This document shows positions 269-42,327 of a stretch of DNA of 43,006 nt, piece after piece. The position numbers were made by a program, and so were the translations under genes. Within the stretch, counting starts at the first letter, position 1; each line of letters opens with the position of its first letter. Below the pieces are notes generated by a model. It was not told the origin of the DNA. It searched no databases and worked only from the letters and a program-made list of their open reading frames with translations. The stretch comes from Actinomycetota bacterium (GTDB lineage Bacteria > Actinomycetota > Thermoleophilia > UBA2241): positions 1 through 43,006 of the forward strand of contig DAIQNY010000002.1 of assembly GCA_036788155.1 (NCBI GenBank), given 5' to 3'.

Positions 269-934
269 GGATTCACTTCCTTTCGTCGCGGCGTCGCCCT
301 CGGCGAGCGTCACGGTCTGCCCTTCGTCCGTCTCACCGGCGGCGACGGCGGGCGAATCGGCGGGGGTGGGCTCGACGGGACTGCCGTCGTCTTCAGTGGC
401 GAGGGAGAACTCCGAAAGCGAGAGCGTCGCCACGACGCGCTGCTTCTCGGCGGCGTTCTGCACGTCCGGCATCAGGCGCAGAACGGGGGTGTTGGTCAGA
501 GTGAGCGAGCGCAGCACGTTGTCGACCGTCTCGCCGGAGTCGTTCAGGACGACGCTGCCGATCTCGACGGAGCCGTACTTGTACTGCTCGCTCGTCAGGA
601 GCTCGGCGCCCAGCGGGGTCCACTTGACGTCGGCCCAGAGCGCGAGGCCGGTCACGTCGCCCTCTTCGTAACTGGCGAGGTAGACGCGCTTCACCCAGCC
701 GGCGGCCGGGGCGGAGGTGTCGTGCTTGCCGGAGCTGTCGACCACCGGCTCGGTGCCGAGCACGCCCGCCTCGAAGTTGGCGATGAGCTCGTTCGCTAGC
801 TCCTCAGTCAGCGGCAGGTTCGGGTACTTGGCGCTGTGCCACTCGCCGACGGGGAACACCATCATGGGCGTCGTATCGCCCGCCTGGATGGCCTCGCCGA
901 GGCGCACGCGGTAGAGGGCCTGCAGGGACGTCAT
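1..934 (-). CDS. Prohead protease/scaffold, Mu gpI-like (N-terminal part; ORF wraps across the circular junction to stop at 42734)
   Basis: ATG at 934 overlaps the portal stop (ATGA). The frame is open to position 1 and continues in phase from 42951 to TGA 42734-42736 (1152 nt, 383 aa). Absent from the ORF track because no stop lies at this end. FPVGEWHSAKYP, GKHD..APAAGWVKRV, LWADVKWTPLGAELL, YKYGSVEI and LTLTNTPVL fit the Mu-like prophage protein I pattern. Confidence 0.8.
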   Translation of the reverse strand, partial: MTSLQALYRVRLGEAIQAGDTTPMMVFPVGEWHSAKYPNLPLTEELANELIANFEAGVLGTEPVVDSSGKHDTSAPAAGWVKRVYLASYEEGDVTGLALWADVKWTPLGAELLTSEQYKYGSVEIGSVVLNDSGETVDNVLRSLTLTNTPVLRLMPDVQNAAEKQRVVATLSLSEFSLATEDDGSPVEPTPADSPAVAAGETDEGQTVTLAEGDAATKGSESMKTVALRLGLAEDSAEDVILAEVEKLAEHDAAETVRADAAEAKLAEAAEAAHKAAVAVTLDEAMNAGEITPAERETLLADDDAKRDAFL

Positions 935-3114
935 GAGGTGGCCTCCTGTCGGATCTCGTAGACGACGATGCAGCGGCACTTGTCGCCGCCCAGACAGTTC
1001 GGATTCGGAGTCCAGCCCGCGGCCTCGGAGAGGTCGGTGGTCTCGCTCCCGTCCATGGGCGCGCAGTTATCACAGAGCGAGCCGTCGAGGATCGCGCTGT
1101 ACACGGCCGTCTCGATGTCCTGCGCCTGCTCGGCGGCCTCAGTAGCGCGGCCCAGGTTCATGAGGTCGGAGGCGACGCCCGCCATGCGCAGCGCCGCAGC
1201 GTCGGACTCGCGGGTCGCGAGCTCGGCCATGCCGGCCGGGTCCATCGGTACGCCACTGCCGGAGCGGAGCACGGCGCCTGCGACGGCGGCCTGCGTCTGC
1301 GCGGCGATGGCGCGGGCTGCCACCTCTGCGGCCTCGTCGACGGCCTCGTCGGGGTCGGGGAGCGGCTGGGCCTTGCGCTTCTTCTCGGCGGCCGCGACGC
1401 GCATCCCGGCCTCGCGGCGCTCGAGCGCCTCCTCTACCACCGGACGGCCTTCGCGCTGGCGCTCGAGCTCGCCTGAGACCTGCTCGCGGCCGGCCTCGAC
1501 GAACCCGGCGAGCACCGGCTTGATGGCGTCGCGCAGGGCGTCGACCATCGGCGGCTGCTGCGCGGCGAACTGCGCAAGCTTCCCGGCCTTCTGGGCGGCG
1601 AGGGCGCGTTCTATGACAATGCCGACGAGCTTGTCTCTCACCCGCTGCGTCGCCATGCGCACGGCCGTCTTGGCGTCGTCGAAGCGGGAGGCGACTTCAG
1701 CCAGCTCGACGAAGCACTCGACGCCGCGAGGTGCCCGCATCTCGGCGAGGTGCAGGTGCTGGCACTCGCAGGCTTGCGCCTCCATGCCATCGTCGTCTGA
1801 GGAGTCGGCGCCGTCTGCATCGTCTGCGCCCGGGCTATCCTGTTTGTTGGCGGCGGGTGCTGGCGGCGCCGGCTTCTCGACGACGACCTGTGCAGTCGTG
1901 CCCTCGGGCATGTTCATCTGCTGGCGCGCCCAGTCCTGCGTCTCCTCGTCCAGCGTGCCGAACGCTGTGTTGAAGGCGACGAGCGCCTGAGCGAAGCGCA
2001 GCATGTCGACGGCCTGCACGTTGCCGAAGCGCAGCTTGGGCAGGCTGTCGTCGGTGGGGAAGTTGTAGGCGACGGCCTGGTGGATGAGGCCGCCGCGGGC
2101 GTTCAGCACGTCCTCGCGGTACATGGCGTGCGCGGTGATCGAGTCGGCGAACAGGTCGGAAAGCGTGGAGCCGAGCGCGCGGCTGCCGTTCTGCGCGTTG
2201 CCGAGGTCGAAAACCTGCGCTTGGCAGACGCTCGTGATTTCGGTGTTCCGCTGCCGGATGGCCTCGAGGATGTCGGCCACGCTGACGGAGCCGGTGAGGA
2301 CCTGGATGTCCTCGACGTCGTCGGAGGAGAAGCGCAGGAACGAGCCGGCCGCGGCGCCGAAGTTGCCGAGCGCCGTATCGATCTTCGCGGCCGTGTCGGA
2401 GTCGGGGGTGCCTTGAGTGCGCGCCATGGGGATGCCGCCCAGCTTGCGCGCCAGCTCCGGGAGCTCTACCTCGAGCTGCTCCTTGATGTACCACGGCTTG
2501 AACATGGCGCGCAGGATGGGGCGGCCGCGGAAGTTGTCGCCTTCCTTGTCGTGGCAGAACCAGACGAGCTTTTCGCCCGGTATCTCGAAGGAGCCGCCGG
2601 TGTCCGGCCGCTGCGTCACCTGCACGATGGCGCCGTGCTGCACTTCGATGTCGTTCGCCTCGATGGACGACGGCGGGCGCAGGGCGAGGCGGAACTTGGC
2701 GAGCCCGTCCTCGAGCCGCCAGATGATCTCGAACGGCGCGAAGCCGTAGTCGAAGGCCAGGCAGGTGTCTTGCAGGAACGCGCGCCAGGGGAACTCGTCG
2801 AGCAGTAGGCGCTTGATGAGGGCCGCCTTCTCGTCGGCGTCCGGGTTGCCAGGCTCGGCAGAGACGATGGAGACGGAGGCGCGCAGCAAGGGCAGGTTCT
2901 GGGCGCGCCTGAGCCCGGCGATGTGCGGGTCGCTGAAGCGCATGCGCTGGTAGACGGTGCCGCCCTGGCGGCCCATGAGCTCGTACTTGTACTCTTGCTC
3001 ACGAAGCCGTGAGGGGCCGCTGCCGACCTGCCACGTGACAGCGTTCGAGCCACGCTCGGAGGTGTCCGGGCGCGGCTTCGTCTCGGCGAGGCGGAGGCGG
3101 TGGAAGATGCTCAC
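931..3114 (-). CDS. Portal protein (Mu gp29/DUF935-like) fused to a MuF-like head morphogenesis domain
   Basis: 727-aa ORF immediately downstream of TerL. The C-terminus CDNCAPMDG...NPNCLGGDKCRC is the Cys motif typical of Mu gpF/SPP1 gp7 domains. GTG start with no clear SD; an in-frame stop lies 27 nt upstream. Confidence 0.8.
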   Translation of the reverse strand: MSIFHRLRLAETKPRPDTSERGSNAVTWQVGSGPSRLREQEYKYELMGRQGGTVYQRMRFSDPHIAGLRRAQNLPLLRASVSIVSAEPGNPDADEKAALIKRLLLDEFPWRAFLQDTCLAFDYGFAPFEIIWRLEDGLAKFRLALRPPSSIEANDIEVQHGAIVQVTQRPDTGGSFEIPGEKLVWFCHDKEGDNFRGRPILRAMFKPWYIKEQLEVELPELARKLGGIPMARTQGTPDSDTAAKIDTALGNFGAAAGSFLRFSSDDVEDIQVLTGSVSVADILEAIRQRNTEITSVCQAQVFDLGNAQNGSRALGSTLSDLFADSITAHAMYREDVLNARGGLIHQAVAYNFPTDDSLPKLRFGNVQAVDMLRFAQALVAFNTAFGTLDEETQDWARQQMNMPEGTTAQVVVEKPAPPAPAANKQDSPGADDADGADSSDDDGMEAQACECQHLHLAEMRAPRGVECFVELAEVASRFDDAKTAVRMATQRVRDKLVGIVIERALAAQKAGKLAQFAAQQPPMVDALRDAIKPVLAGFVEAGREQVSGELERQREGRPVVEEALERREAGMRVAAAEKKRKAQPLPDPDEAVDEAAEVAARAIAAQTQAAVAGAVLRSGSGVPMDPAGMAELATRESDAAALRMAGVASDLMNLGRATEAAEQAQDIETAVYSAILDGSLCDNCAPMDGSETTDLSEAAGWTPNPNCLGGDKCRCIVVYEIRQEATS

Positions 3115-3165
3115 GCTGTCTAGCGTGAGGCACCATGGTGGTCACTCTAACGGCAAGTTCTGAGG

Positions 3166-4656
3166 CTAGAAGGTGCCGGAGCGGCGGCCGGGGACGGTGG
3201 CGACCGCGTTCTCCGACGCCGGTCGGTTCGTCCAGTTCACGCCGAAGTACCGGAGCGCGTCGAGCACGTGCTGATAGGGTGACTCGTGCGACTGGTCGTA
3301 GAGCTCAGGGCGCACCTTGTCGGGCGGCACCGAGGTGAGCGAGGCGACGAGGCAGGGGCAGGCGGTCGAGACGACGAGCGGCAGGTCGGGGTCGGCGATC
3401 AGCTCGAGCAGCCGCATGCAGCCGTCACGGACGCTGCTCGGCTTGCTGACGAAGTGCAGCCCGGCGCGGCGGAAGGCGCTCGCCTCCGACTCGCCCGTCT
3501 GCGCGTTCACGCCGCGGCCTGCCGGGTCGCCGTAGGTGCGCGCCGGCGGCTTCGCGAGGCCGAGCTTGATGTCCGTCTCAAGGATGCCGTCGATGAACGC
3601 TCCCGTCGTCATGCGCGCCGACGGCTCGCGGAAGGCGGGCACCAGCTCGGCGACGACGAACGGCTGCCCGGCCGGTGAGACCTGCACCCAGACGCAGGCG
3701 GGGTGGTGGTAACCGAAGTCGACGGAGCGGTACGTCTGCCAGTCCTTCACCGGCCGGATCTCGCGCACGTGCTGCTCGCGCTTGAAGCGGGAGAAGTAGG
3801 ACCCGGCCGGGGTCACGTCCCAGTTGCCCTCGAGGAGCTGCGCCCGTGTCACGTCGTCAAGCTTCTCGAGGGCCGCAAGGTAGGCGTCTTGGTCGACGTG
3901 CGGGTTCTCACGGAGCTTGGCGGGGATGAAGACGCGCGTCCCGTCCTGCTTGGTCGTGATGAACCGCTGCTTGACCCACTCGTGGCCGACGCCGCCGGGG
4001 TTCGAGGCCGCACGCATGCGAATCGGCACCTCACTGCCGGCGAGGCGGCGGAGGCGGCTGAACAGGTAGGTGTACTGGCTCTCGGTGAACTGCGTGAGCT
4101 CGTCGAAGCCGATGAACTGGAACTCGGCCGACTGGTAGCGGTACTTGCTGTTCTCGCTCTCCAGATAGCCGAACGTCAAAGTCGCGCCGCTCGGGAAGGT
4201 CCAGGCATGCTCGATGCCGTTCCACTTCGCCGCCGTCCCGCGCAGCCACAAGTCTGCCCTGTCCATGAGGGCGCCGGGGAGGGCGAGGTCGGCGAAGGTG
4301 CGGCGCAGGAGGAGCGCGGCGTACCCGGGCACGTCGACGTACTGCAGTGCGGCCATGAGCAGGGCGTCGCTCTTGCCACCGCCGGCGGCGCCGCCGTACA
4401 GGGCTTCGTCGCAGGTGAGGTCGAGGAACTCGCGCTGCTTGGGCGTCGGCTCGTGCGGAGCCCAGCCGCGGCGGGCGTCAGTCCTTCGCTGCCGCTCCGC
4501 CAGTAATGCCCTCAGCCTCTCGGACGATGGCGGCGGCGAGTTCGTCGTCCGACATGGCGGCGATGTCCGGGTACCGATGAGACACCTCCTCGCGGATCGT
4601 GCTCTCGCCTGCCTCCAGGCGCAGCTTGTCGATGAGGATGCCGCAGGTGACGGCAA
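3166..4656 (-). CDS. terL: Terminase large subunit (start codon uncertain)
   Basis: Walker A YGGAAGGGKS, FIGFDELTQF, and a nuclease-half pattern. The conserved-looking N-terminus ERLRALLAERQRR begins near 4515. The nearest in-frame canonical starts are TTG 4656, ATG 4686 and TTG 4707, all deep inside terS. Confidence 0.85.
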   Translation of the reverse strand: MPSPAASSSTSCAWRQARARSARRCLIGTRTSPPCRTTNSPPPSSERLRALLAERQRRTDARRGWAPHEPTPKQREFLDLTCDEALYGGAAGGGKSDALLMAALQYVDVPGYAALLLRRTFADLALPGALMDRADLWLRGTAAKWNGIEHAWTFPSGATLTFGYLESENSKYRYQSAEFQFIGFDELTQFTESQYTYLFSRLRRLAGSEVPIRMRAASNPGGVGHEWVKQRFITTKQDGTRVFIPAKLRENPHVDQDAYLAALEKLDDVTRAQLLEGNWDVTPAGSYFSRFKREQHVREIRPVKDWQTYRSVDFGYHHPACVWVQVSPAGQPFVVAELVPAFREPSARMTTGAFIDGILETDIKLGLAKPPARTYGDPAGRGVNAQTGESEASAFRRAGLHFVSKPSSVRDGCMRLLELIADPDLPLVVSTACPCLVASLTSVPPDKVRPELYDQSHESPYQHVLDALRYFGVNWTNRPASENAVATVPGRRSGTF

Positions 4657-5005
4657 GGTCTTTGCAGACGTTCGCCGGCGGCTCATCCAGCTCGACCTCG
4701 ACGCCAAGCTTCGTGAACGTCTTGAACTTGCCGTCCATGCGGTCGAGCACCGTGAGCGCCCGGTCCAGCAGCTTGACGCGCAGTTGCTCGCGCTTCTCGG
4801 CCTGCGCAGCGATGGAGGCGGCAGTCGCCGCGGCCGTCTGCTGTTCCACGAGCGCCGCCTTGTCGACGCCGGCGGCCTTGCACCAGTTCGACACGGAGCC
4901 GGCCGAGCAGCCGAACTTGCTCGCTGTCTCGAAGACCGGGTGCGTCTTCGCGTACTCGACGACGGCCGCCTTCTCGGCGTCAGTCCAGGTCTTGCGCTTG
5001 CTCAT
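4478..5005 (-). CDS. terS: Terminase small subunit-like DNA-binding protein (N-terminal HTH plus coiled coil; Mu gp27/DUF3486-like by pattern)
   Basis: 175 aa directly upstream of terL. HTH-like RKTWTDAEKAAVVEY...ASKFGCSAGSVSNWCK followed by a long helical region. Confidence 0.55.
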   Translation of the reverse strand: MSKRKTWTDAEKAAVVEYAKTHPVFETASKFGCSAGSVSNWCKAAGVDKAALVEQQTAAATAASIAAQAEKREQLRVKLLDRALTVLDRMDGKFKTFTKLGVEVELDEPPANVCKDLAVTCGILIDKLRLEAGESTIREEVSHRYPDIAAMSDDELAAAIVREAEGITGGAAAKD

Positions 5006-16611: not shown

Positions 16612-16824
16612 TCACCACGTCGCGTCCGGCCACGCCAGCTTCTTGATGAAGTAACCGACGGCGGCCGCGGCGGCGCTGGCGACGGCGGCCCAGCTCTCCG
16701 GCACGCCGATGGCCACGAGGTTCGCCCCGACGGCGGCCCACGCGATCCCGGTCAGGGCCAGCGTCCAGATGCCGCGGATGAGGGCGGCCTTGAAGCGCGT
16801 CCAGTCCATGGTCTCGTTACCCAT
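16612..16824 (-). CDS. Holin-like two-TM protein (r1t-holin-like pattern)
   Basis: ATG 16824 with GGGGAG 6 nt upstream. WTRFKAALIRGIWTLALTGIAWAAVG and a second hydrophobic helix. Confidence 0.55.
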   Translation of the reverse strand: MGNETMDWTRFKAALIRGIWTLALTGIAWAAVGANLVAIGVPESWAAVASAAAAAVGYFIKKLAWPDATW

Positions 16825-16836
16825 GTTCACCTCCCC

Positions 16837-18477
16837 TCAGACAGGTAGACGGGTCTGTGCCGCAGCCGCTTCGATGCGGCGGCGGGCGATGGTGACGTAC
16901 TCGGACTCCCTCTCAATCCCGATGAAGTCCCGGCCCTCTTCCATGCAAGCGACGCCGGTGGTGCCGGAGCCGGTGAAGGGGTCGAGGACGAGGTCGCCGG
17001 GACGGGCCACGAGGCGGACCAGCCAGCGCATGAGGGCGAGGGGCTTACAAGTTGGGTGCGTGTTCCCTTGCAGCCGCACGCTTGCGCTTGTTCTCAATGG
17101 CGTTTCGGATACAACAGTCCTTGCACCAGGGGCTGACCCCGCTCTTTCGTTCGTAGTAGTCAGTGATCGGCCTAGTGACTCCGCACTTTCCGCAAGGCTT
17201 ATGCCACAGGCCGGAAGCGTCGCGAGTACAGCCGCTATGGATTCGCTTATGGGTCGTGTGGTCCAGACAGGTGAGGTTTTCGATACGGTTGTCTTGCTTG
17301 TCTCCGTTGACGTGGTGGATACAGTGACCGTCAGGTACTGGCCCGAACTCGGACTCCCACACGATGACGTGCTGCATCCTTGACTTTCCTGTCCCGTCGC
17401 CCACTCGGATATAGCCCTTACGAGTGACGTGACCTGTGCCGTACTTTCGCCGCATGGACACACCTCCAGTTCCAGCGTTACGAATAGACCGCTTACGCCT
17501 GCGTTGCGCTCACGGGACGAACTCTTAGCGTTGTAGAAGAAGCGGGAGGGGCCACCGGAGTCGCCCACGCTCAGCACATCGCCCTCGCGCCGTGCTGCCC
17601 CGTACATGCCTGCCCCATAGTCGCTTCGGCAGGTACCGGGATGAGTCGTCAGCACCCCCACCGCCCCATCCAACTCCCGCCCCGCCTCCTCATCCAGCAC
17701 GAGGTTGGCGGGCCAGCGACCTTCGGCATGGTGGCGCGGCGAGTCTGGGTGCGGATTCTCGCTGCCTGTGTAGGTGTGCGAGAAGCCGCCTGCGTAGACC
17801 TCGCCGCGCCCCAGTCCGCTGCCGGGCTGGTTGTACGAGCGGCGTGTCGGGTCGATGCAGCCCTCTATCGAAACCCGGCACTCCTCAATCCCCAGCTCCC
17901 GCATCGGCCCCGGTTTGCGGGCGAGAATGATCGGCTCCCATGCGGGCTTGAGACACGCCTTGCCTTTGGGAAACCCGGACCCGTACAGCCACATGAGCGT
18001 GTCCCGTATCTCGAACCCGGCATCTTCCAAGGCGCAAGCAAGGCGGTGCCATGTGCGGGTGCCACCGAAGGCGAGGAGGTAGTGGGAGGGCTTGAGGACG
18101 CGGAGGGCCTCGGTTGCCCATTCCTCGTTGAACTTTTGGAATGCGTGCAGTTGCGCGGGCTTGCTGGCGACGACCTCCCAGTCCGGCTCGGGGCACTGAC
18201 AGGGCGACCCGCTGAACTCCTGCTTGTGGCATATACGGCACCGCTTCTTCGTTGCGCGGGGATAGGCTGACGACTGACGCCTGACACGGCGGCCATTCCA
18301 ATCTGGTGAGTTTGTGTCCTTACGGCTCCATGCCTCGCCGCCCGAATGGAAGCGGTCCCATTCCTTCCCCATGAACTCCAGCCCATAGGGAGGGTCACAG
18401 ACCACCGCATCCACCGACCCGGCCTCCATCCCGGCCATGACCTCGAGGCAGTCGCCGTGGATGACCTCGAACGTCAC
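16837..18477 (-). CDS. DNA methyltransferase (beta-class N6-adenine/N4-cytosine type) carrying a 144-codon insert
   Basis: Motif IV VVCDPPYG near the N-terminus; NTHPTCKP and motif I LDPFTGSGTTG near the C-terminus. 144 Ser/Thr-rich codons (17065-17496) separate ERNAG from NTHPT, where I recall related enzymes having roughly 40. Confidence 0.85.
   Translation of the reverse strand: MTFEVIHGDCLEVMAGMEAGSVDAVVCDPPYGLEFMGKEWDRFHSGGEAWSRKDTNSPDWNGRRVRRQSSAYPRATKKRCRICHKQEFSGSPCQCPEPDWEVVASKPAQLHAFQKFNEEWATEALRVLKPSHYLLAFGGTRTWHRLACALEDAGFEIRDTLMWLYGSGFPKGKACLKPAWEPIILARKPGPMRELGIEECRVSIEGCIDPTRRSYNQPGSGLGRGEVYAGGFSHTYTGSENPHPDSPRHHAEGRWPANLVLDEEAGRELDGAVGVLTTHPGTCRSDYGAGMYGAARREGDVLSVGDSGGPSRFFYNAKSSSRERNAGVSGLFVTLELEVCPCGESTAQVTSLVRAISEWATGQESQGCSTSSCGSPSSGQYLTVTVSTTSTETSKTTVSKTSPVWTTRPISESIAAVLATLPACGISLAESAESLGRSLTTTNERAGSAPGARTVVSETPLRTSASVRLQGNTHPTCKPLALMRWLVRLVARPGDLVLDPFTGSGTTGVACMEEGRDFIGIERESEYVTIARRRIEAAAAQTRLPV
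17045..17461 (-). mobile_element. HNH homing-type endonuclease gene nested out of frame inside the methyltransferase ORF
   Basis: 138 aa; HCIHHVNGDKQDNRIENLTCLDHTTHKRIH is an HNH_3-type motif. Own SD (GGAGG plus 7 nt). Region visibly lower in GC. TAA stop overlaps the NTHPT codons of the host gene. Confidence 0.8.
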
Positions 18478-32728: not shown

Positions 32729-33979
32729 TTAAGCCTCCGGTGTCGGGACCCAGTGGTCAAAGAGCGGTGTGTGCTCGAGCTCCAGCGTCACGTCGGGCCG
32801 CCTGAGAGCGCCGTTCGCGTCGATGGCGGCGACGAGCAGGCGGCAGGCGCCGACGCCCTCGAGGCCGGGACCGGATGCATAGCGCCGCGCGCTCCGCCAG
32901 GCGCCGGAGCTGAGCTGCATCGACGTGTCCAGCCATTCGGAGACGACCTTGGCCACCTCCGCCGCCGTGCAGTGGAAGTAGAAGGGGGAGCCGAGGTCGA
33001 GCGGCACGGCAAGCACCCAGTCGACCAGGATGCCGTTCGCTGCCTCGCGGCACTTGCCGACGATGCGCGGCGGCGTGTACCCGTCGCTGGCCCAGTCGCC
33101 AAGCCGCAGGAACCGCCAGTCGTTATCGGTGAGCGCCACCGCCGGCGTCGCCTGTATGTTCGTCTCCCGCGCCTGCGCGAGCCAGCCCTTTCCGCCGGTC
33201 TGGATGCGGCACCGGGCGACGTAGGAGTACCGGCCCACGGGCTGCACCTTTCCGGGCCAGTAGAGGGCGCGGTAAGTCGTGTCAGTGCAGATCCTCACGT
33301 TGTCGTCGCCGGTCTCGTGCCCGGACGTCGCCGTGTAGGTGCCCCAGTTCGGGCCCGTCGCGGTCTTCGCCAGCATGAAGATGTCCGCGAGCTCGACGTC
33401 TGGGGGGATGAGCGCGGCCATGAAGGTCTGCAGGCCGGAGCCGGTAAAGCCGCGGGTCGCGGTCAGCTTGAGCTCGGCGGGGCGGGAGCCGGAGACGGTG
33501 AAGTCGACCGTGGCCGGGGTGTCTGCTTCCGTGGCGATGGTCCGGGAGACGGACTCGCCCTCCACCCAGGGCGCCACCGAGAGCGTCACCGGCACGTAGA
33601 GGATGCCGCCCTTGTCGAAGATGCGCGTGAAGGGGACGCGGGGCACCTGATTGCGTGCGACCCGCCACGTGTTCGCGACGGAGCTGCCGCGGCGCGTGAT
33701 CACCAGCGTGTTCGCTCCCTTGGCGAGCTCCACCGAGAGGTTGTGCTGCAGGCGCACGGCGCACTCGCGGGCGTTCTCCTCAAGGCTCGTGACGCCACGC
33801 AGCCTCACCGGCCAGGTCTGCTCACGCCAGCCGGTGACGTAGCTCATGGTGTCAGCGGGCTCGCGAGACAGCGGGCCGGCGACGGTGCCGAAGTCCTGCT
33901 GTGGGGCGCCGAGGTCGGGCTCGTCGTCGTAGAGCTGGAGGGTGAGGCTCCCAAGGGTGAAGGTGCCGGGGGTGCTCAT
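32729..33979 (-). CDS. Minor tail protein (416 aa) immediately after the tape measure
   Basis: ATGA overlap with the TMP stop. The position is typical of a distal tail protein, but no motif was recognised. Confidence 0.55.
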   Translation of the reverse strand: MSTPGTFTLGSLTLQLYDDEPDLGAPQQDFGTVAGPLSREPADTMSYVTGWREQTWPVRLRGVTSLEENARECAVRLQHNLSVELAKGANTLVITRRGSSVANTWRVARNQVPRVPFTRIFDKGGILYVPVTLSVAPWVEGESVSRTIATEADTPATVDFTVSGSRPAELKLTATRGFTGSGLQTFMAALIPPDVELADIFMLAKTATGPNWGTYTATSGHETGDDNVRICTDTTYRALYWPGKVQPVGRYSYVARCRIQTGGKGWLAQARETNIQATPAVALTDNDWRFLRLGDWASDGYTPPRIVGKCREAANGILVDWVLAVPLDLGSPFYFHCTAAEVAKVVSEWLDTSMQLSSGAWRSARRYASGPGLEGVGACRLLVAAIDANGALRRPDVTLELEHTPLFDHWVPTPEA

Positions 33980-36180
33980 GGGACCGCCAGGGCGTCGAGC
34001 ATGCGGGGGACGACCTTGTCTGTGAGGATGCGCTCGACGTCGCGCTCGGTGACGCTGCCCTCGAAGCGGGCGCCGGAGAAGTCGAAGGAGATGCCGCCCC
34101 CCGCCCCCAGCAGCGCCTTCACCTGCCGCTTGCCGATCACGTACGGCTCCGGCCCAGCCTCGCCGATGACGGCTTCAATCTCGCTGCGGGCAACGCCGAT
34201 GCCGCCGGCGGCAAACTTCTTCTTCGGCTTGCGCGCAGCCTTCTCAAGCTCGGCTGTGATGCGGTCACGCGCCGCCTTGTCGAGAGGAGCGTTGTCGGCG
34301 TTGTAGCCGAGCTTCGACGTGTAGCCGCCCGCGATGGCGTCGGCGAGGTTCGATGCCGCCTCGGCCCGGGCTGCGTCTGCCGCCTGCTGCGCCGTGAGCG
34401 GCTTGCCCATGACGGCCGCCTCGGTGCTGGCCCGCAGGAAGTCCGCCATGGTCTTGAACTGCGCCTCGGTGTTCTCCTTGACTGCGCCGGTCAGGCCCTC
34501 GACGGCGACGGTGTTCTGGTCGGAGGCAAGGGCGTCCTTCTCGGAGGCGGCCGCGGCCTGGTCGGTCTTCTGGAGCCCTTCGCGGTAGGCGGCGATGGTC
34601 TTCTCGTTGCCTGAGGCGTAGGTCTTGATGGCTGTGTTCAGCGCGGCGGCCGCTGCCTGATTACGCTCGCTCTTGAAGTAGATCCCGAGCGGCCCCTTCT
34701 GCAGGTCGCTCAGGCCGAGCTTGAAGTCGGCGTTGAAGTCGTCGAGCGCCTGCTTCAGATACTGGGGAAGCTCACGACCTGGGTTCTTCGCCTGCCACTC
34801 ACCGATGGCGCGGCCGAGGTTCTGCGCGCGTGCCTCCGCGGCAGCCTCGTTCTGACCTTCGGCGTTCCACCATTCCTTGAAGGCGCCAGCGGCCTCGATC
34901 ACGAGGTAGGTGGTCGTGACGGCGGCGGAGCCGATGGAGAGTGCGGCGCTGCCGACGCTCATCCCGCCCATGAAGTTGGATGCCGTGGTAGGCCGTGGCG
35001 CCGAGCCCATGCCGGAGTTGCCGGTGCCGACGACGCCAGGGACGGTGGTTCCGAGGCCGGTGACGCCAGCCCTCTGCGACTGGACGCCCCACGTTGCCGG
35101 GGCGGCAGCTGCAGCGCCAGAGACGCGCATCCCCGGGCCGCGTGACACCGTGGTGTTGTTCTTCTGCCAGGCGCGCGTGTTAGCCTCGACGGCCGTGGTC
35201 TGCGTCGTTACGGCCCTCGTCTCAGACTCGACGGCGGTCCTGTGCGCATGCACCTGCGGCAGCAGCCTCCCAAACGTCTGCCCCCATGCTCCGCTTAGCA
35301 TGTTCGCGATCTTCACCACACTGACAAAACCGCCGAGGGCCATGGTCACCGGAACGATTGCAGGGGCAAGCGGCTTCAGTAGGCGTAGACCGTCGCCGAG
35401 CAGTTCGACGAATGGGGTCATGGCCGGAACGACGTCGCGCGCCACGACCTCGGAGATGCCGCGCAGGGAGATCTTCAGTTCGGCCTGCGCCTTCGCAGCG
35501 GCGGCGTACTGCTCGACCGTCTTCTCATCCCAGACGAGGCCGGACTCCTCGATCAGCTTGTTCGTCTCGGCCATGGACTCAGCCGATTGGCTGAACCAGT
35601 TGCTCATAGAAAGGGCACCGCGGCCGAGGAGTTTGGTTGCCGTGCTAGTCCGCTCCAGTCCCGGGCCGAGTTCTGCAAGGGCGTCGCGCGTCGCGAAGAT
35701 GGCCTCTGAGTCGCTCATGGCGGCAAGTTCTGCAGCGGACAGCCCGAGAGTCGCGAACGACTTAGCGTACTGCTCGTTCCCCTGTCGCGCTTCAGTGATG
35801 GCCTTGGCTAGCGTCTTCGTCGCCATGCCGGCAGCCCCGGCCTCGACGCCGTACCGCTTCCACTGCGCCTCGAGCAGCGAGGCGCCGGCAGCGTCCATGC
35901 CAGTCGAGCGCATGATGGAGCGGATCTCCGAGCCACGCTTCTGGAAATCGTAGACGGACTTGGTGATGATGCCGAGCCCGACCGCGAAGCCCCCGGCGGC
36001 GACGTTCGCGGCCTTGTTCATGCTCTCGCCCCAGGCGCCGAAGGCGGTGGCCGTCTTCTTCGCCTGCGTCTCCGCCTTCTTGAGCGTGGTTGTCGTCTTC
36101 TTCTCGAGCGCGTCGACGGCGCGCACGGCTCCCTTGGAGTCGCCCGCGATGACCAGCCTGAGTGTCTCCGTCATGGACAC
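33976..36180 (-). CDS. Tail tape measure protein (734 aa)
   Basis: Ala/Gly/Lys-rich. N-terminal region similar to the TP901-type TMP core (GAWGESMNKAANVAAGGFAVGLG...LLGRGALSMSNWF). Lies directly after the chaperone-like ORFs. Confidence 0.85.
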   Translation of the reverse strand: MSMTETLRLVIAGDSKGAVRAVDALEKKTTTTLKKAETQAKKTATAFGAWGESMNKAANVAAGGFAVGLGIITKSVYDFQKRGSEIRSIMRSTGMDAAGASLLEAQWKRYGVEAGAAGMATKTLAKAITEARQGNEQYAKSFATLGLSAAELAAMSDSEAIFATRDALAELGPGLERTSTATKLLGRGALSMSNWFSQSAESMAETNKLIEESGLVWDEKTVEQYAAAAKAQAELKISLRGISEVVARDVVPAMTPFVELLGDGLRLLKPLAPAIVPVTMALGGFVSVVKIANMLSGAWGQTFGRLLPQVHAHRTAVESETRAVTTQTTAVEANTRAWQKNNTTVSRGPGMRVSGAAAAAPATWGVQSQRAGVTGLGTTVPGVVGTGNSGMGSAPRPTTASNFMGGMSVGSAALSIGSAAVTTTYLVIEAAGAFKEWWNAEGQNEAAAEARAQNLGRAIGEWQAKNPGRELPQYLKQALDDFNADFKLGLSDLQKGPLGIYFKSERNQAAAAALNTAIKTYASGNEKTIAAYREGLQKTDQAAAASEKDALASDQNTVAVEGLTGAVKENTEAQFKTMADFLRASTEAAVMGKPLTAQQAADAARAEAASNLADAIAGGYTSKLGYNADNAPLDKAARDRITAELEKAARKPKKKFAAGGIGVARSEIEAVIGEAGPEPYVIGKRQVKALLGAGGGISFDFSGARFEGSVTERDVERILTDKVVPRMLDALAVP

Positions 36181-41388: not shown

Positions 41389-42327
41389 TCAGCTGACCAC
41401 CGTGGAGTACAGGTAGGCCGAGTAGATCGAGACGACCTTCTCGTCCACGTAGTCGTCGCAGTACCACTTCCAGCCCTTGACGTCGTCGTCCCAGACGGGG
41501 CCGCGGACGGTGTAGCGCCCGCCGTCCACAGCGGTCCACGCGAACGACTTCATCGGGCAGATGGACTTGCTCATCGGGGCGGGGTCGATGTACGCGACCG
41601 AGGCGAACTTGCCCCAGATGTTGGTGAACGTGTCGGCCGCCGACTTGTAGACGGCGCGGCCCACGAGGATGCGGGCGACGCCGAGCGCCTGGGCGATCTG
41701 CGCCTCGGTCGGCATCGCCTCGGGGGCGTTCAGGCCGAACACGATCTTGCGGATGGCGGCGTGCTTCTGCAGGGCGCGGAAGCAGTCGTAACCCATGACC
41801 ACGGCGTTCGGCTCACGGCCGATCTTTCCGCGCACGGTCGCCTTGGCGTCGTCCACCTGGTCGACCGGATCGCTCGTGTCGACGTCCCAGCGGTTGGCGC
41901 CGGCGAGGGCCGCCGTCTGCGTGAAGGTCCCGGGCGCGAACATGATGTCGGCGACGCGCTTCTCGCGGGCGATCTTGAGGTTGTCGATGGGGATCTGCAG
42001 GGCGTCCTTCGCGGGGTCGACCTGCGGGTCGGCGTTGGCCATGTCCTCCTGCGGGACGACTGCCTTCAGGCCGTGGCCCTCACAGGCGTAGGTGCCGGTC
42101 GACTTGGCCCACTGGACCTCGCCGTACTGGCCGCCCGGGCCGCGGGCCGTCTCGACGAGCTCGTAGCCCTCGGCGCCGTGGACCCAGTAGTAGTCGGTCT
42201 TCTTCGCGACCGGGATGACCGGGGCCACGAGGTCTGCGATCAGGGCGTCGTCCTGGCGGGCGTACTCCTGTGCCCAGCCGGTGAGGGCGGCGTCGATGTG
42301 AAGGTCGGCGTGCTGCGTGCCTGACAT
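41389..42327 (-). CDS. Major capsid protein (HK97 fold, lambda E / Mu T-like family by pattern)
   Basis: 312 aa. Lies after the protease/scaffold and decoration genes. The VIPVAKKTDYYW...ARGPGGQYGEV...YACEGHGLKAVVPQEDMANAD pattern is typical of this capsid family. Confidence 0.8.
   Translation of the reverse strand: MSGTQHADLHIDAALTGWAQEYARQDDALIADLVAPVIPVAKKTDYYWVHGAEGYELVETARGPGGQYGEVQWAKSTGTYACEGHGLKAVVPQEDMANADPQVDPAKDALQIPIDNLKIAREKRVADIMFAPGTFTQTAALAGANRWDVDTSDPVDQVDDAKATVRGKIGREPNAVVMGYDCFRALQKHAAIRKIVFGLNAPEAMPTEAQIAQALGVARILVGRAVYKSAADTFTNIWGKFASVAYIDPAPMSKSICPMKSFAWTAVDGGRYTVRGPVWDDDVKGWKWYCDDYVDEKVVSIYSAYLYSTVVS

Follow-up and report, generated by a model that had tools for sequence, protein, structure and literature searches.

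An HNH_3 endonuclease gene nested out of frame in a phage DNA methyltransferase gene: a probable mobile element in a host frame that appears to be kept open

The DNA analyzed here is a stretch of 43,006 nucleotides (nt), positions 1 to 43,006 of contig DAIQNY010000002.1 in assembly GCA_036788155.1, which is labeled Actinomycetota bacterium. We refer to this whole stretch as the window. Its minus strand carries a DNA methyltransferase gene, and a gene for an HNH endonuclease is nested inside it in another reading frame. The arrangement was pointed out in an earlier note made from the sequence alone. The features of the locus are listed below, the host gene first and then in the direction of transcription.

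16837..18477, minus strand: host gene, an open reading frame (ORF) of 546 amino acids (aa) for a beta-class N6/N4 DNA methyltransferase (Pfam N6_N4_Mtase, 9e-39), a single ORF through the insert
18382..18396, minus strand: DPPYG catalytic motif (motif IV) of the methyltransferase
17497-17511, minus strand: ERNAG motif of the methyltransferase
17488..17511, minus strand: ERNAGVSG, the final conserved host residues before the insert (ERNAG-LEG in homologs)
17065..17496, minus strand: Ser/Thr-rich read-through segment, 144 codons in the host frame with 0 stops over 432 nt
within 17065..17496, minus strand: example stretch of the insert peptide in host-frame translation, SPVWTTRPISESIAAVLATLPACGISLAESAESLGR
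17463..17467, minus strand: GGAGG Shine-Dalgarno site, 7 nt upstream of the ATG at 17455
17045..17455, minus strand: nested gene for a putative HNH_3 homing endonuclease, 136 aa from the ATG or 138 aa from a GTG at 17461, frame offset 2 relative to the host gene
17237..17317, minus strand: HNH catalytic core, HHVNGDKQDNRIENL...HKRIH
17114..17194, minus strand: C-terminal zinc ribbon of the HNH protein, CGKC...CKDC
17050-17064, minus strand: NTHPT motif of the methyltransferase
17041..17058, minus strand: HPTCKP, the methyltransferase motif preceding the S-adenosylmethionine (AdoMet)-binding FxGxG; positions 17045-17058 are dual-coded
16954..16983, minus strand: DPFTGSGTTG AdoMet-binding motif (motif I) of the methyltransferase, modeled with high confidence (predicted local distance difference test, pLDDT, >90)

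The host protein is a beta-class enzyme by its motif order, with DPPY in the N-terminal part and HPTxKP and FxGxG in the C-terminal part, and by its match to the N6_N4_Mtase profile. The coordinates that the note had given for DPPYG, ERNAG, NTHPT and DPFTGSGTTG are exact. In an alignment of 60 sequences, D28, P30 and Y31 of the DPPYG motif and H474, P475, T476, K478 and P479 of HPTxKP are invariant, and the window methyltransferase keeps every invariant motif in both halves. Its nearest solved relatives are the beta-class enzymes CcrM (6PBD), DpnA-type enzymes, MboIIA and RsrI, and also PvuII. Their alignments to the C-terminal part begin at residue 467-473 (431 for PvuII), at or just ahead of the end of the insert. 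Among phage proteins, it is 40-45% identical to those of Taj, Mantra, Megiddo and similar mycobacteriophages.

The nested ORF matches Pfam HNH_3 at 8e-17 (61 bits, curated cut-off 24.8) and the PHROG HNH endonuclease family at 8e-16. The profile search thus bears out the assignment of an HNH_3-type ORF of 138 aa at 17045-17461. A PDB sequence search with the HNH protein returned no match at E<=0.01. The residues H47, H48, N56, N60, H69 and H73 of the core are invariant in 82/82 nested homologs, and the four Cys ligands of the zinc ribbon are kept in 81-82 of 82. The note had also assigned the gene a GGAGG Shine-Dalgarno site of its own. This site is present, and the start is likely the ATG at 17455 rather than the GTG at 17461, which lies only 1 nt past the GGAGG. 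The Shine-Dalgarno context AACTGGAGGTGTG is identical in three related loci (L018-L020), and a near-identical one, AATTGGAGGTATG, is found in L017. The HNH protein is probably translated from this internal start.

The 3' end of the nested gene runs into conserved host codons. Its last five codons overlap NTHPT. The TAA stop (17045-17047), which the note had placed over the NTHPT codons, lies further on, within the Cys and Lys codons of HPTCKP. The overlap between the HNH gene and HPTCKP measures 14 nt. The usual Val of HPTVKP is Cys in the window because of the overlap with the HNH codons and the TAA stop. The base composition of the insert is distinct, and a lower content of guanine plus cytosine (GC) had been noticed before: 0.569 in the insert, compared with 0.659 in the rest of the methyltransferase gene and 0.677 in the window.

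Comparison with insert-free homologs defines the insertion. The closest, P0002, is 69-75% identical to the window methyltransferase and reads SRFFYCAKASRRERNAG-LEGMEAKAAEWDHWVASGTNPGGISAPRT-NHHPTVKP at the site, that is, ERNAG-LEGMEAKAAEWDHWVASGTNPGGISAPRT-NHHPTVKP. The spacer from ERNAG to NHHPT or NTHPT is 29 residues in P0002 and 144 in the window. Likewise, the stretch that is 144 residues long in the window measures about 30 in P0004 and other homologs free of the insert, and the distance from SRFF to HPT is 19-60 residues in most homologs compared with 163 in the window. By these alignments, the insert evidently takes the place of a native spacer of about 30 aa and is not added to it. 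The linker had thus been correctly recognized as the site of an invasion; the spacer was replaced rather than extended. Spacer lengths thus differ among homologs, and the site of the element is a linker whose length and sequence vary naturally. Similar Ser/Thr-rich read-through inserts are found in several of the top 120 methyltransferase homologs. Four insert-bearing loci were retrieved for inspection (L010, L012, L013 and L014), and a homologous HNH ORF of 137-141 aa is hidden in the insert of each at the same offset.

The same junction is interrupted in other ways in mycobacteriophages. In many homologs, including those of Kari, Seagreen and Daenerys, the methylase is annotated as two coding sequences cut at ER|HPTVKP, and in some of these a vsr-like endonuclease lies on the opposite strand between the halves. 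The methylase of MooMoo is uninterrupted at this junction. An Rfam intron scan at the split mycobacteriophage loci found none.

Read in the host frame, the insert is open throughout, and the 144 stop-free codons (432 nt) between ERNAG and NTHPT that the note had reported are there. The peptide is rich in Ser, Thr and Leu, and a Pfam search with it found no family at E<=1. An AlphaFold2 (AF2) model of the methyltransferase was built with 60 homologs. The core has pLDDT values >90, and the insert (residues 328-471) has values of 36-80 with a mean of about 57. Such values are in keeping with a loop that is loosely structured and tolerated. The evidence of selection for an open host frame (see below) and the model together suggest that the insert-bearing 546-aa methyltransferase is active.

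An intein would also place an in-frame insertion in a host protein. The insert could be an intein, perhaps in degenerate form, which excises itself from the protein and carries its endonuclease out of frame; such inteins exist (bioRxiv 10.1101/2025.01.02.630785), and a relative of the window element, L141, has exactly this arrangement in a terminase gene. In the Pfam search above, however, the host-frame peptide matched neither a Hint nor an intein family at E<=1, and the HNH ORF covers all but about 14 of the insert residues, too few to accommodate splicing blocks. At the junctions, the residues (G|V...G|N) also differ from the Cys, Ser or Thr typical of inteins. We therefore consider an intein extremely improbable.

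How often would the host frame be open by chance? It corresponds to the +1 frame of the HNH gene (codon positions 2, 3 and the next 1). With the HNH protein held fixed and synonymous codons redrawn, it was open in 0.048 of trials with window codon usage, in 0.012 with the codon usage of the HNH gene itself, and in 0.004 when the HNH gene's own codons were permuted. Among control genes of the window (n=33), 4.4% of 139-codon stretches are open in the same frame. The hand estimate of well under 1 in 20 given before can now be replaced by computed values of 0.4-4.8%, which stay under 1 in 20. For the window by itself, this is suggestive but not decisive evidence that the open frame is more than chance. 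A plus-strand ORF of 224 aa (16709-17383) also spans most of the insert. It is expected by chance because its frame, antisense to the HNH gene, is open in 56% of control-gene stretches.

The homologs with read-through inserts first came from a protein search that favors long ORFs, a possible ascertainment bias. The survey was repeated with an alignment of five HNH proteins as the sole bait against metagenome, viral and genome collections. It recovered 89 distinct HNH copies located directly upstream of a methyltransferase C-terminal part starting at HPTxKP, and 83 of the 89 have frame offset 2 and an open host frame. In these copies the host frame is open across the entire HNH gene and usually for 1.2-2.6 kb upstream as well. 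None of the intact copies (81/81) has a single host-frame stop, even at 32-40% GC. The remaining forward frame of the nested copies contains about 12 stops on average, and about 20 in the loci with 32-40% GC. By synonymous permutation, no more than 17.4 open copies would be expected, compared with the 81 observed.

Free-standing homologs of the HNH gene behave differently. As first classed (n=49), they have a mean of 4.5 stops in the equivalent frame, and five are open. Three of these five proved to be nested in methyltransferase genes and one in an intein, so the true background of open frames is at most about 2 in 45. From this contrast between 81/81 open copies and 4.5 stops in free-standing homologs, we conclude that the host frame is kept open by selection, as judged from sequence comparison. 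The two frames appear to be constrained in different ways. In 3,321 pairwise comparisons, the HNH translations are on average 52% identical and the host-frame translations 29%. The conservation of the HNH frame, with invariant catalytic and zinc-binding residues, indicates that the endonuclease is kept functional. By the same comparison, the host-frame peptide is only kept open. Past the insert, every nested copy retains the C-terminal AdoMet-binding part of the methyltransferase, fully conserved and in the host frame.

These results bear on the two alternatives that the note had offered beside a mobile HNH invasion. One was that the methyltransferase is a very recent pseudogene, its open frame a matter of chance in GC-rich DNA. 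Such DNA does carry long open frames, as the overlapping plus-strand ORF illustrates; the chance estimate reaches 4.8%; and a near-identical copy of the insert in the metagenomic contig L005 has a host-frame stop. Chance in GC-rich DNA does not account for 81/81 open frames in a set that includes very AT-rich copies, when free-standing homologs average 4.5 stops. A disrupted gene is also not expected to keep every invariant methyltransferase motif in both halves, and recent decay cannot explain a frame that is open across copies only about 50% identical. A pseudogene is thus quite unlikely.

The other alternative was that the insert is spliced out of the RNA, either as a group I intron or through some unrecognized mechanism, in which case the read-through protein would not be the functional product. 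HNH genes are frequent passengers of phage group I introns (discussed in PMC11855218). The insert adjoins a highly conserved motif, as introns often do, and other elements interrupt mycobacteriophage homologs at the same junction. A permissive Rfam intron scan, however, found nothing in this region of the window at E<=10, and a scan of 16 related loci (10 plus 6 atypical ones) found nothing. The HNH ORF leaves only about 41 nt of the insert uncovered and runs 14 nt into the HPTCKP codons. Because the ORF fills nearly the whole insert, there is no room for a ribozyme core. An insert that is removed from the mRNA would not need an open frame, so splicing is disfavored and gives no reason for the 81/81 copies that lack host-frame stops. 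We consider it very unlikely.

The distribution of the element points to mobility. The insert of L005 is 98.6% identical to that of the window, and about 70 nt of upstream flank are near-identical too. Elsewhere the methyltransferase DNA of L005 is only 49-89% identical to the window, with indels. Similarly, four loci (L025, L026, L028 and L120) share HNH genes that are 95-99% identical, while their methyltransferase N-terminal parts are 55-60% identical. The correlation between HNH and host distances is moderate (Spearman 0.56). Near-identical inserts in divergent methyltransferases suggest that the element moves between alleles, as homing predicts. This distribution pattern is what indicates that the HNH protein may act as a homing endonuclease that cuts insert-free alleles.

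Taken together, the evidence favors a mobile HNH_3 gene that resides inside a phage DNA methyltransferase gene as neither intron nor intein, and whose host frame is read through under selection. We give this reading a probability of roughly three in four. It is also the reading that the note preferred, and the 83/89 copies that share site and offset and the 81/81 open frames support it. The element would sit in, and have replaced, the variable linker between ERNAG-LEG and HPTxKP. The endonuclease would be translated from its own GGAGG and the ATG at 17455 in frame offset 2, and ribosomes in the methyltransferase frame would read through the same DNA. Their product would be a methyltransferase in which a Ser/Thr-rich loop of about 140 aa, with little structure, separates the target-recognition part from the part that binds AdoMet. 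Most likely, the element would spread when the endonuclease cuts insert-free alleles of co-infecting relatives and the element is copied in at repair. Selection at the level of the phage would purge copies with a host-frame stop, so that the element stays harmless.

Several observations weigh against this reading. A clear Shine-Dalgarno motif is found in only 35/82 nested copies. About 6% of the surveyed copies are arranged otherwise, for example the split locus L041. In L005, the host frame is closed by a CGA to TGA change at the position equivalent to 17256 of the window. Since closed copies do arise, it is conceivable that the copy in the window is neutral. The description of the insert as a disordered loop is only approximate, as AF2 confidence is moderate in parts of it. 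Finally, the frame may be kept open for other reasons: an early stop could terminate translation and exert polarity on downstream genes, or ribosome traffic could serve to tune expression of the endonuclease. The read-through protein is predicted from sequence and model to be an active methyltransferase, and ribosomes in the host frame cross the endonuclease start and could hold its expression low. On the other hand, the C-terminal part is conserved and in frame in all nested copies, as a single covalent methyltransferase would need. The existence of a split version with a separately started C-terminal part (L041) indicates that polarity can be solved in another way. We regard selection for such other reasons as unlikely.

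Two of these loci are described further here. In L041, an AT-rich contig (1129-3309), the HNH ORF (2486-2863) is separate from the methyltransferase parts. It is flanked by a stop-terminated N-terminal part (1129-2496) and a C-terminal part with its own start (3052-3309), so that the same insertion appears here as a ‘gene in pieces’. This layout was rejected for the window, in which the methyltransferase is a single 546-aa ORF. In L005, the C to T change at 17256 substitutes Met for Thr in the HNH frame; the contig may hold a decaying copy or a sequencing error.

The nested-HNH design is not new. A ‘ShiLan domain’ was described in mycobacteriophage methylases (Gosselin et al., 2023; PMC9957025), and it was later recognized as a hidden out-of-frame HNH gene (Arsenault, Gosselin and Gogarten, 2025; PMC11855218). 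The host frame is open there, intron and intein features are absent, and the loop was proposed to be tolerated (PMC9957025; PMC11855218). We used Mantra gp64, which carries a ShiLan domain, for sequence comparison. The two elements share the methylase family, the position of the HNH ORF in the third frame (offset 2), an open host frame, the absence of intron or intein signals, and a patchy distribution with transfer. Both endonucleases match HNH_3, and those of the window and Mantra are 35% identical over 97 aa.

The differences are also clear. The element in Mantra gp64 lies at KPxxEPIVVARKP, whereas that of the window lies between ERNAG-LEG and HPTxKP. The window HNH protein is 136 aa, compared with 195-229 aa (229 aa for the Mantra ORF), and does not have the N-terminal zinc finger. 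The window has a clear GGAGG, while none was reported for ShiLan (PMC11855218). Unlike ShiLan, the window element replaces a native spacer and has its stop codon inside a conserved host motif, and its lineage is spread over many phyla and GC contents. Judged from these comparisons, the window element represents a separate lineage of the ShiLan kind, with an HNH_3 gene that is only distantly related and has a different location within the shared methylase family.

Other systems resemble the window element in part. Pacc40 gp60 has a methylase insertion with a hidden endonuclease-like ORF, for which the HNH assignment was called less certain (PMC11855218). It too is nested out of frame in a phage methylase gene whose own frame is open. 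According to the published description, it is set apart by another methylase family and another site. In the inteins with non-canonical out-of-frame endonucleases mentioned above, the endonuclease also lies in frame 3 within an in-frame host insertion. The window insert, however, does not contain a Hint or splicing domain, so the extra peptide should stay in the protein. The intein of L141 (IMG/VR UViG_3300007363_000002) interrupts the gene for a terminase large subunit (1776-4043; Pfam Hint_2 and Intein_splicing). Its endonuclease region harbors an HNH_3 ORF (2423-2992) that lies out of frame and is related to the window HNH gene.

Free-standing homing endonucleases can split host genes, as mobE does in nrdA of Aeromonas phage Aeh1. 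There as in the window, the gene that harbors the endonuclease is essential or conserved, and neither an intron nor an intein is involved; the layout of L041 matches. In the window, however, the host gene is unsplit and forms one continuous ORF. Group I introns of phages encode HNH homing endonucleases such as I-HmuI. Like the window element, these introns are inserted in phage genes beside a conserved motif, and both probably spread by homing. The window insert differs in having neither a ribozyme nor room for one, and in its open host frame, which introns do not need.

A second, unrelated type of nested endonuclease (MRCEYCG...HRHH...) was observed in L006 (1559-1954) and L009 (1662-2009). 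It matches a PHROG endonuclease/HNH family at 1e-11, has offset 2 and leaves the host frame open. It is located just after SRFF(Y), and the target motif is repeated (SRFYFIAK ... TRFLYCAK). This type is found in the methyltransferase homologs P0003, P0006 and P0016 and probably in P0057 and P0070. Offset 2, equivalent to the -1 frame, is common to all three nested lineages (L016, 1773-2462; L006 and L009; the window, 17045-17455), although with three lineages this is not significant.

The shared offset would also suit a -1 ribosomal frameshift that fuses the N-terminal part of the methyltransferase to the HNH protein, so that the nuclease is targeted by the recognition domain. The HNH gene has its own Shine-Dalgarno site and ATG, which argues against it, and we consider such a fusion highly improbable. 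On reading the sequence it was rejected: the HNH frame is closed by a TGA at 17510-17512, and there is no slippery heptamer before the start.

Outside this locus, the gene content of the window looks like that of a complete or nearly complete tailed-phage genome. The main structural and packaging genes are the following.

931-3114: portal
3166-4707: large terminase
33976-36180: tape measure
41389-42327: major head protein

An exonuclease, ParB-like proteins and an excisionase-like regulator are also encoded. A megablast search against GenBank phage records returned only a 57-nt match, to Arthrobacter phage Orcanus. In a tblastn search of the same records, the HNH protein matched only free-standing HNH genes at 30-40% identity. 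Because only such distant matches were found, the lineage of the window does not appear to be represented in the GenBank phage records searched.

The usual view has been that homing endonuclease genes persist in conserved genes only within inteins or self-splicing introns. A third route was suggested in 2025 for ShiLan, with the host reading through the endonuclease gene in another frame (PMC11855218). The window now provides a second lineage, which is distantly related and occupies a different site in this methylase family, and the survey gives the first quantitative sign of strong selection on the read-through frame (81/81 open copies against 4.5 stops). The arrangement reaches well beyond actinobacteriophages, as the surveyed copies span phage contigs and assemblies labeled Planctomycetota, Proteobacteria, Bacteroidota, Bacilli and Actinobacteria. 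A broader interpretation is that these copies form a large family that crosses phyla (80 or more distinct members, 32-66% GC), neither introns nor inteins, overprinted on a translated host linker. Read-through would then be a general third route to harmlessness, with purifying selection in both frames and a methyltransferase that now depends on the DNA of the element. We place the odds of this broader interpretation at about even. Nested endonuclease genes of this kind are systematically missed, as gene callers annotate only the long methyltransferase ORF. The loci are natural examples of long (about 400 nt) dual coding on the same strand, with a clear test of selection for each frame.

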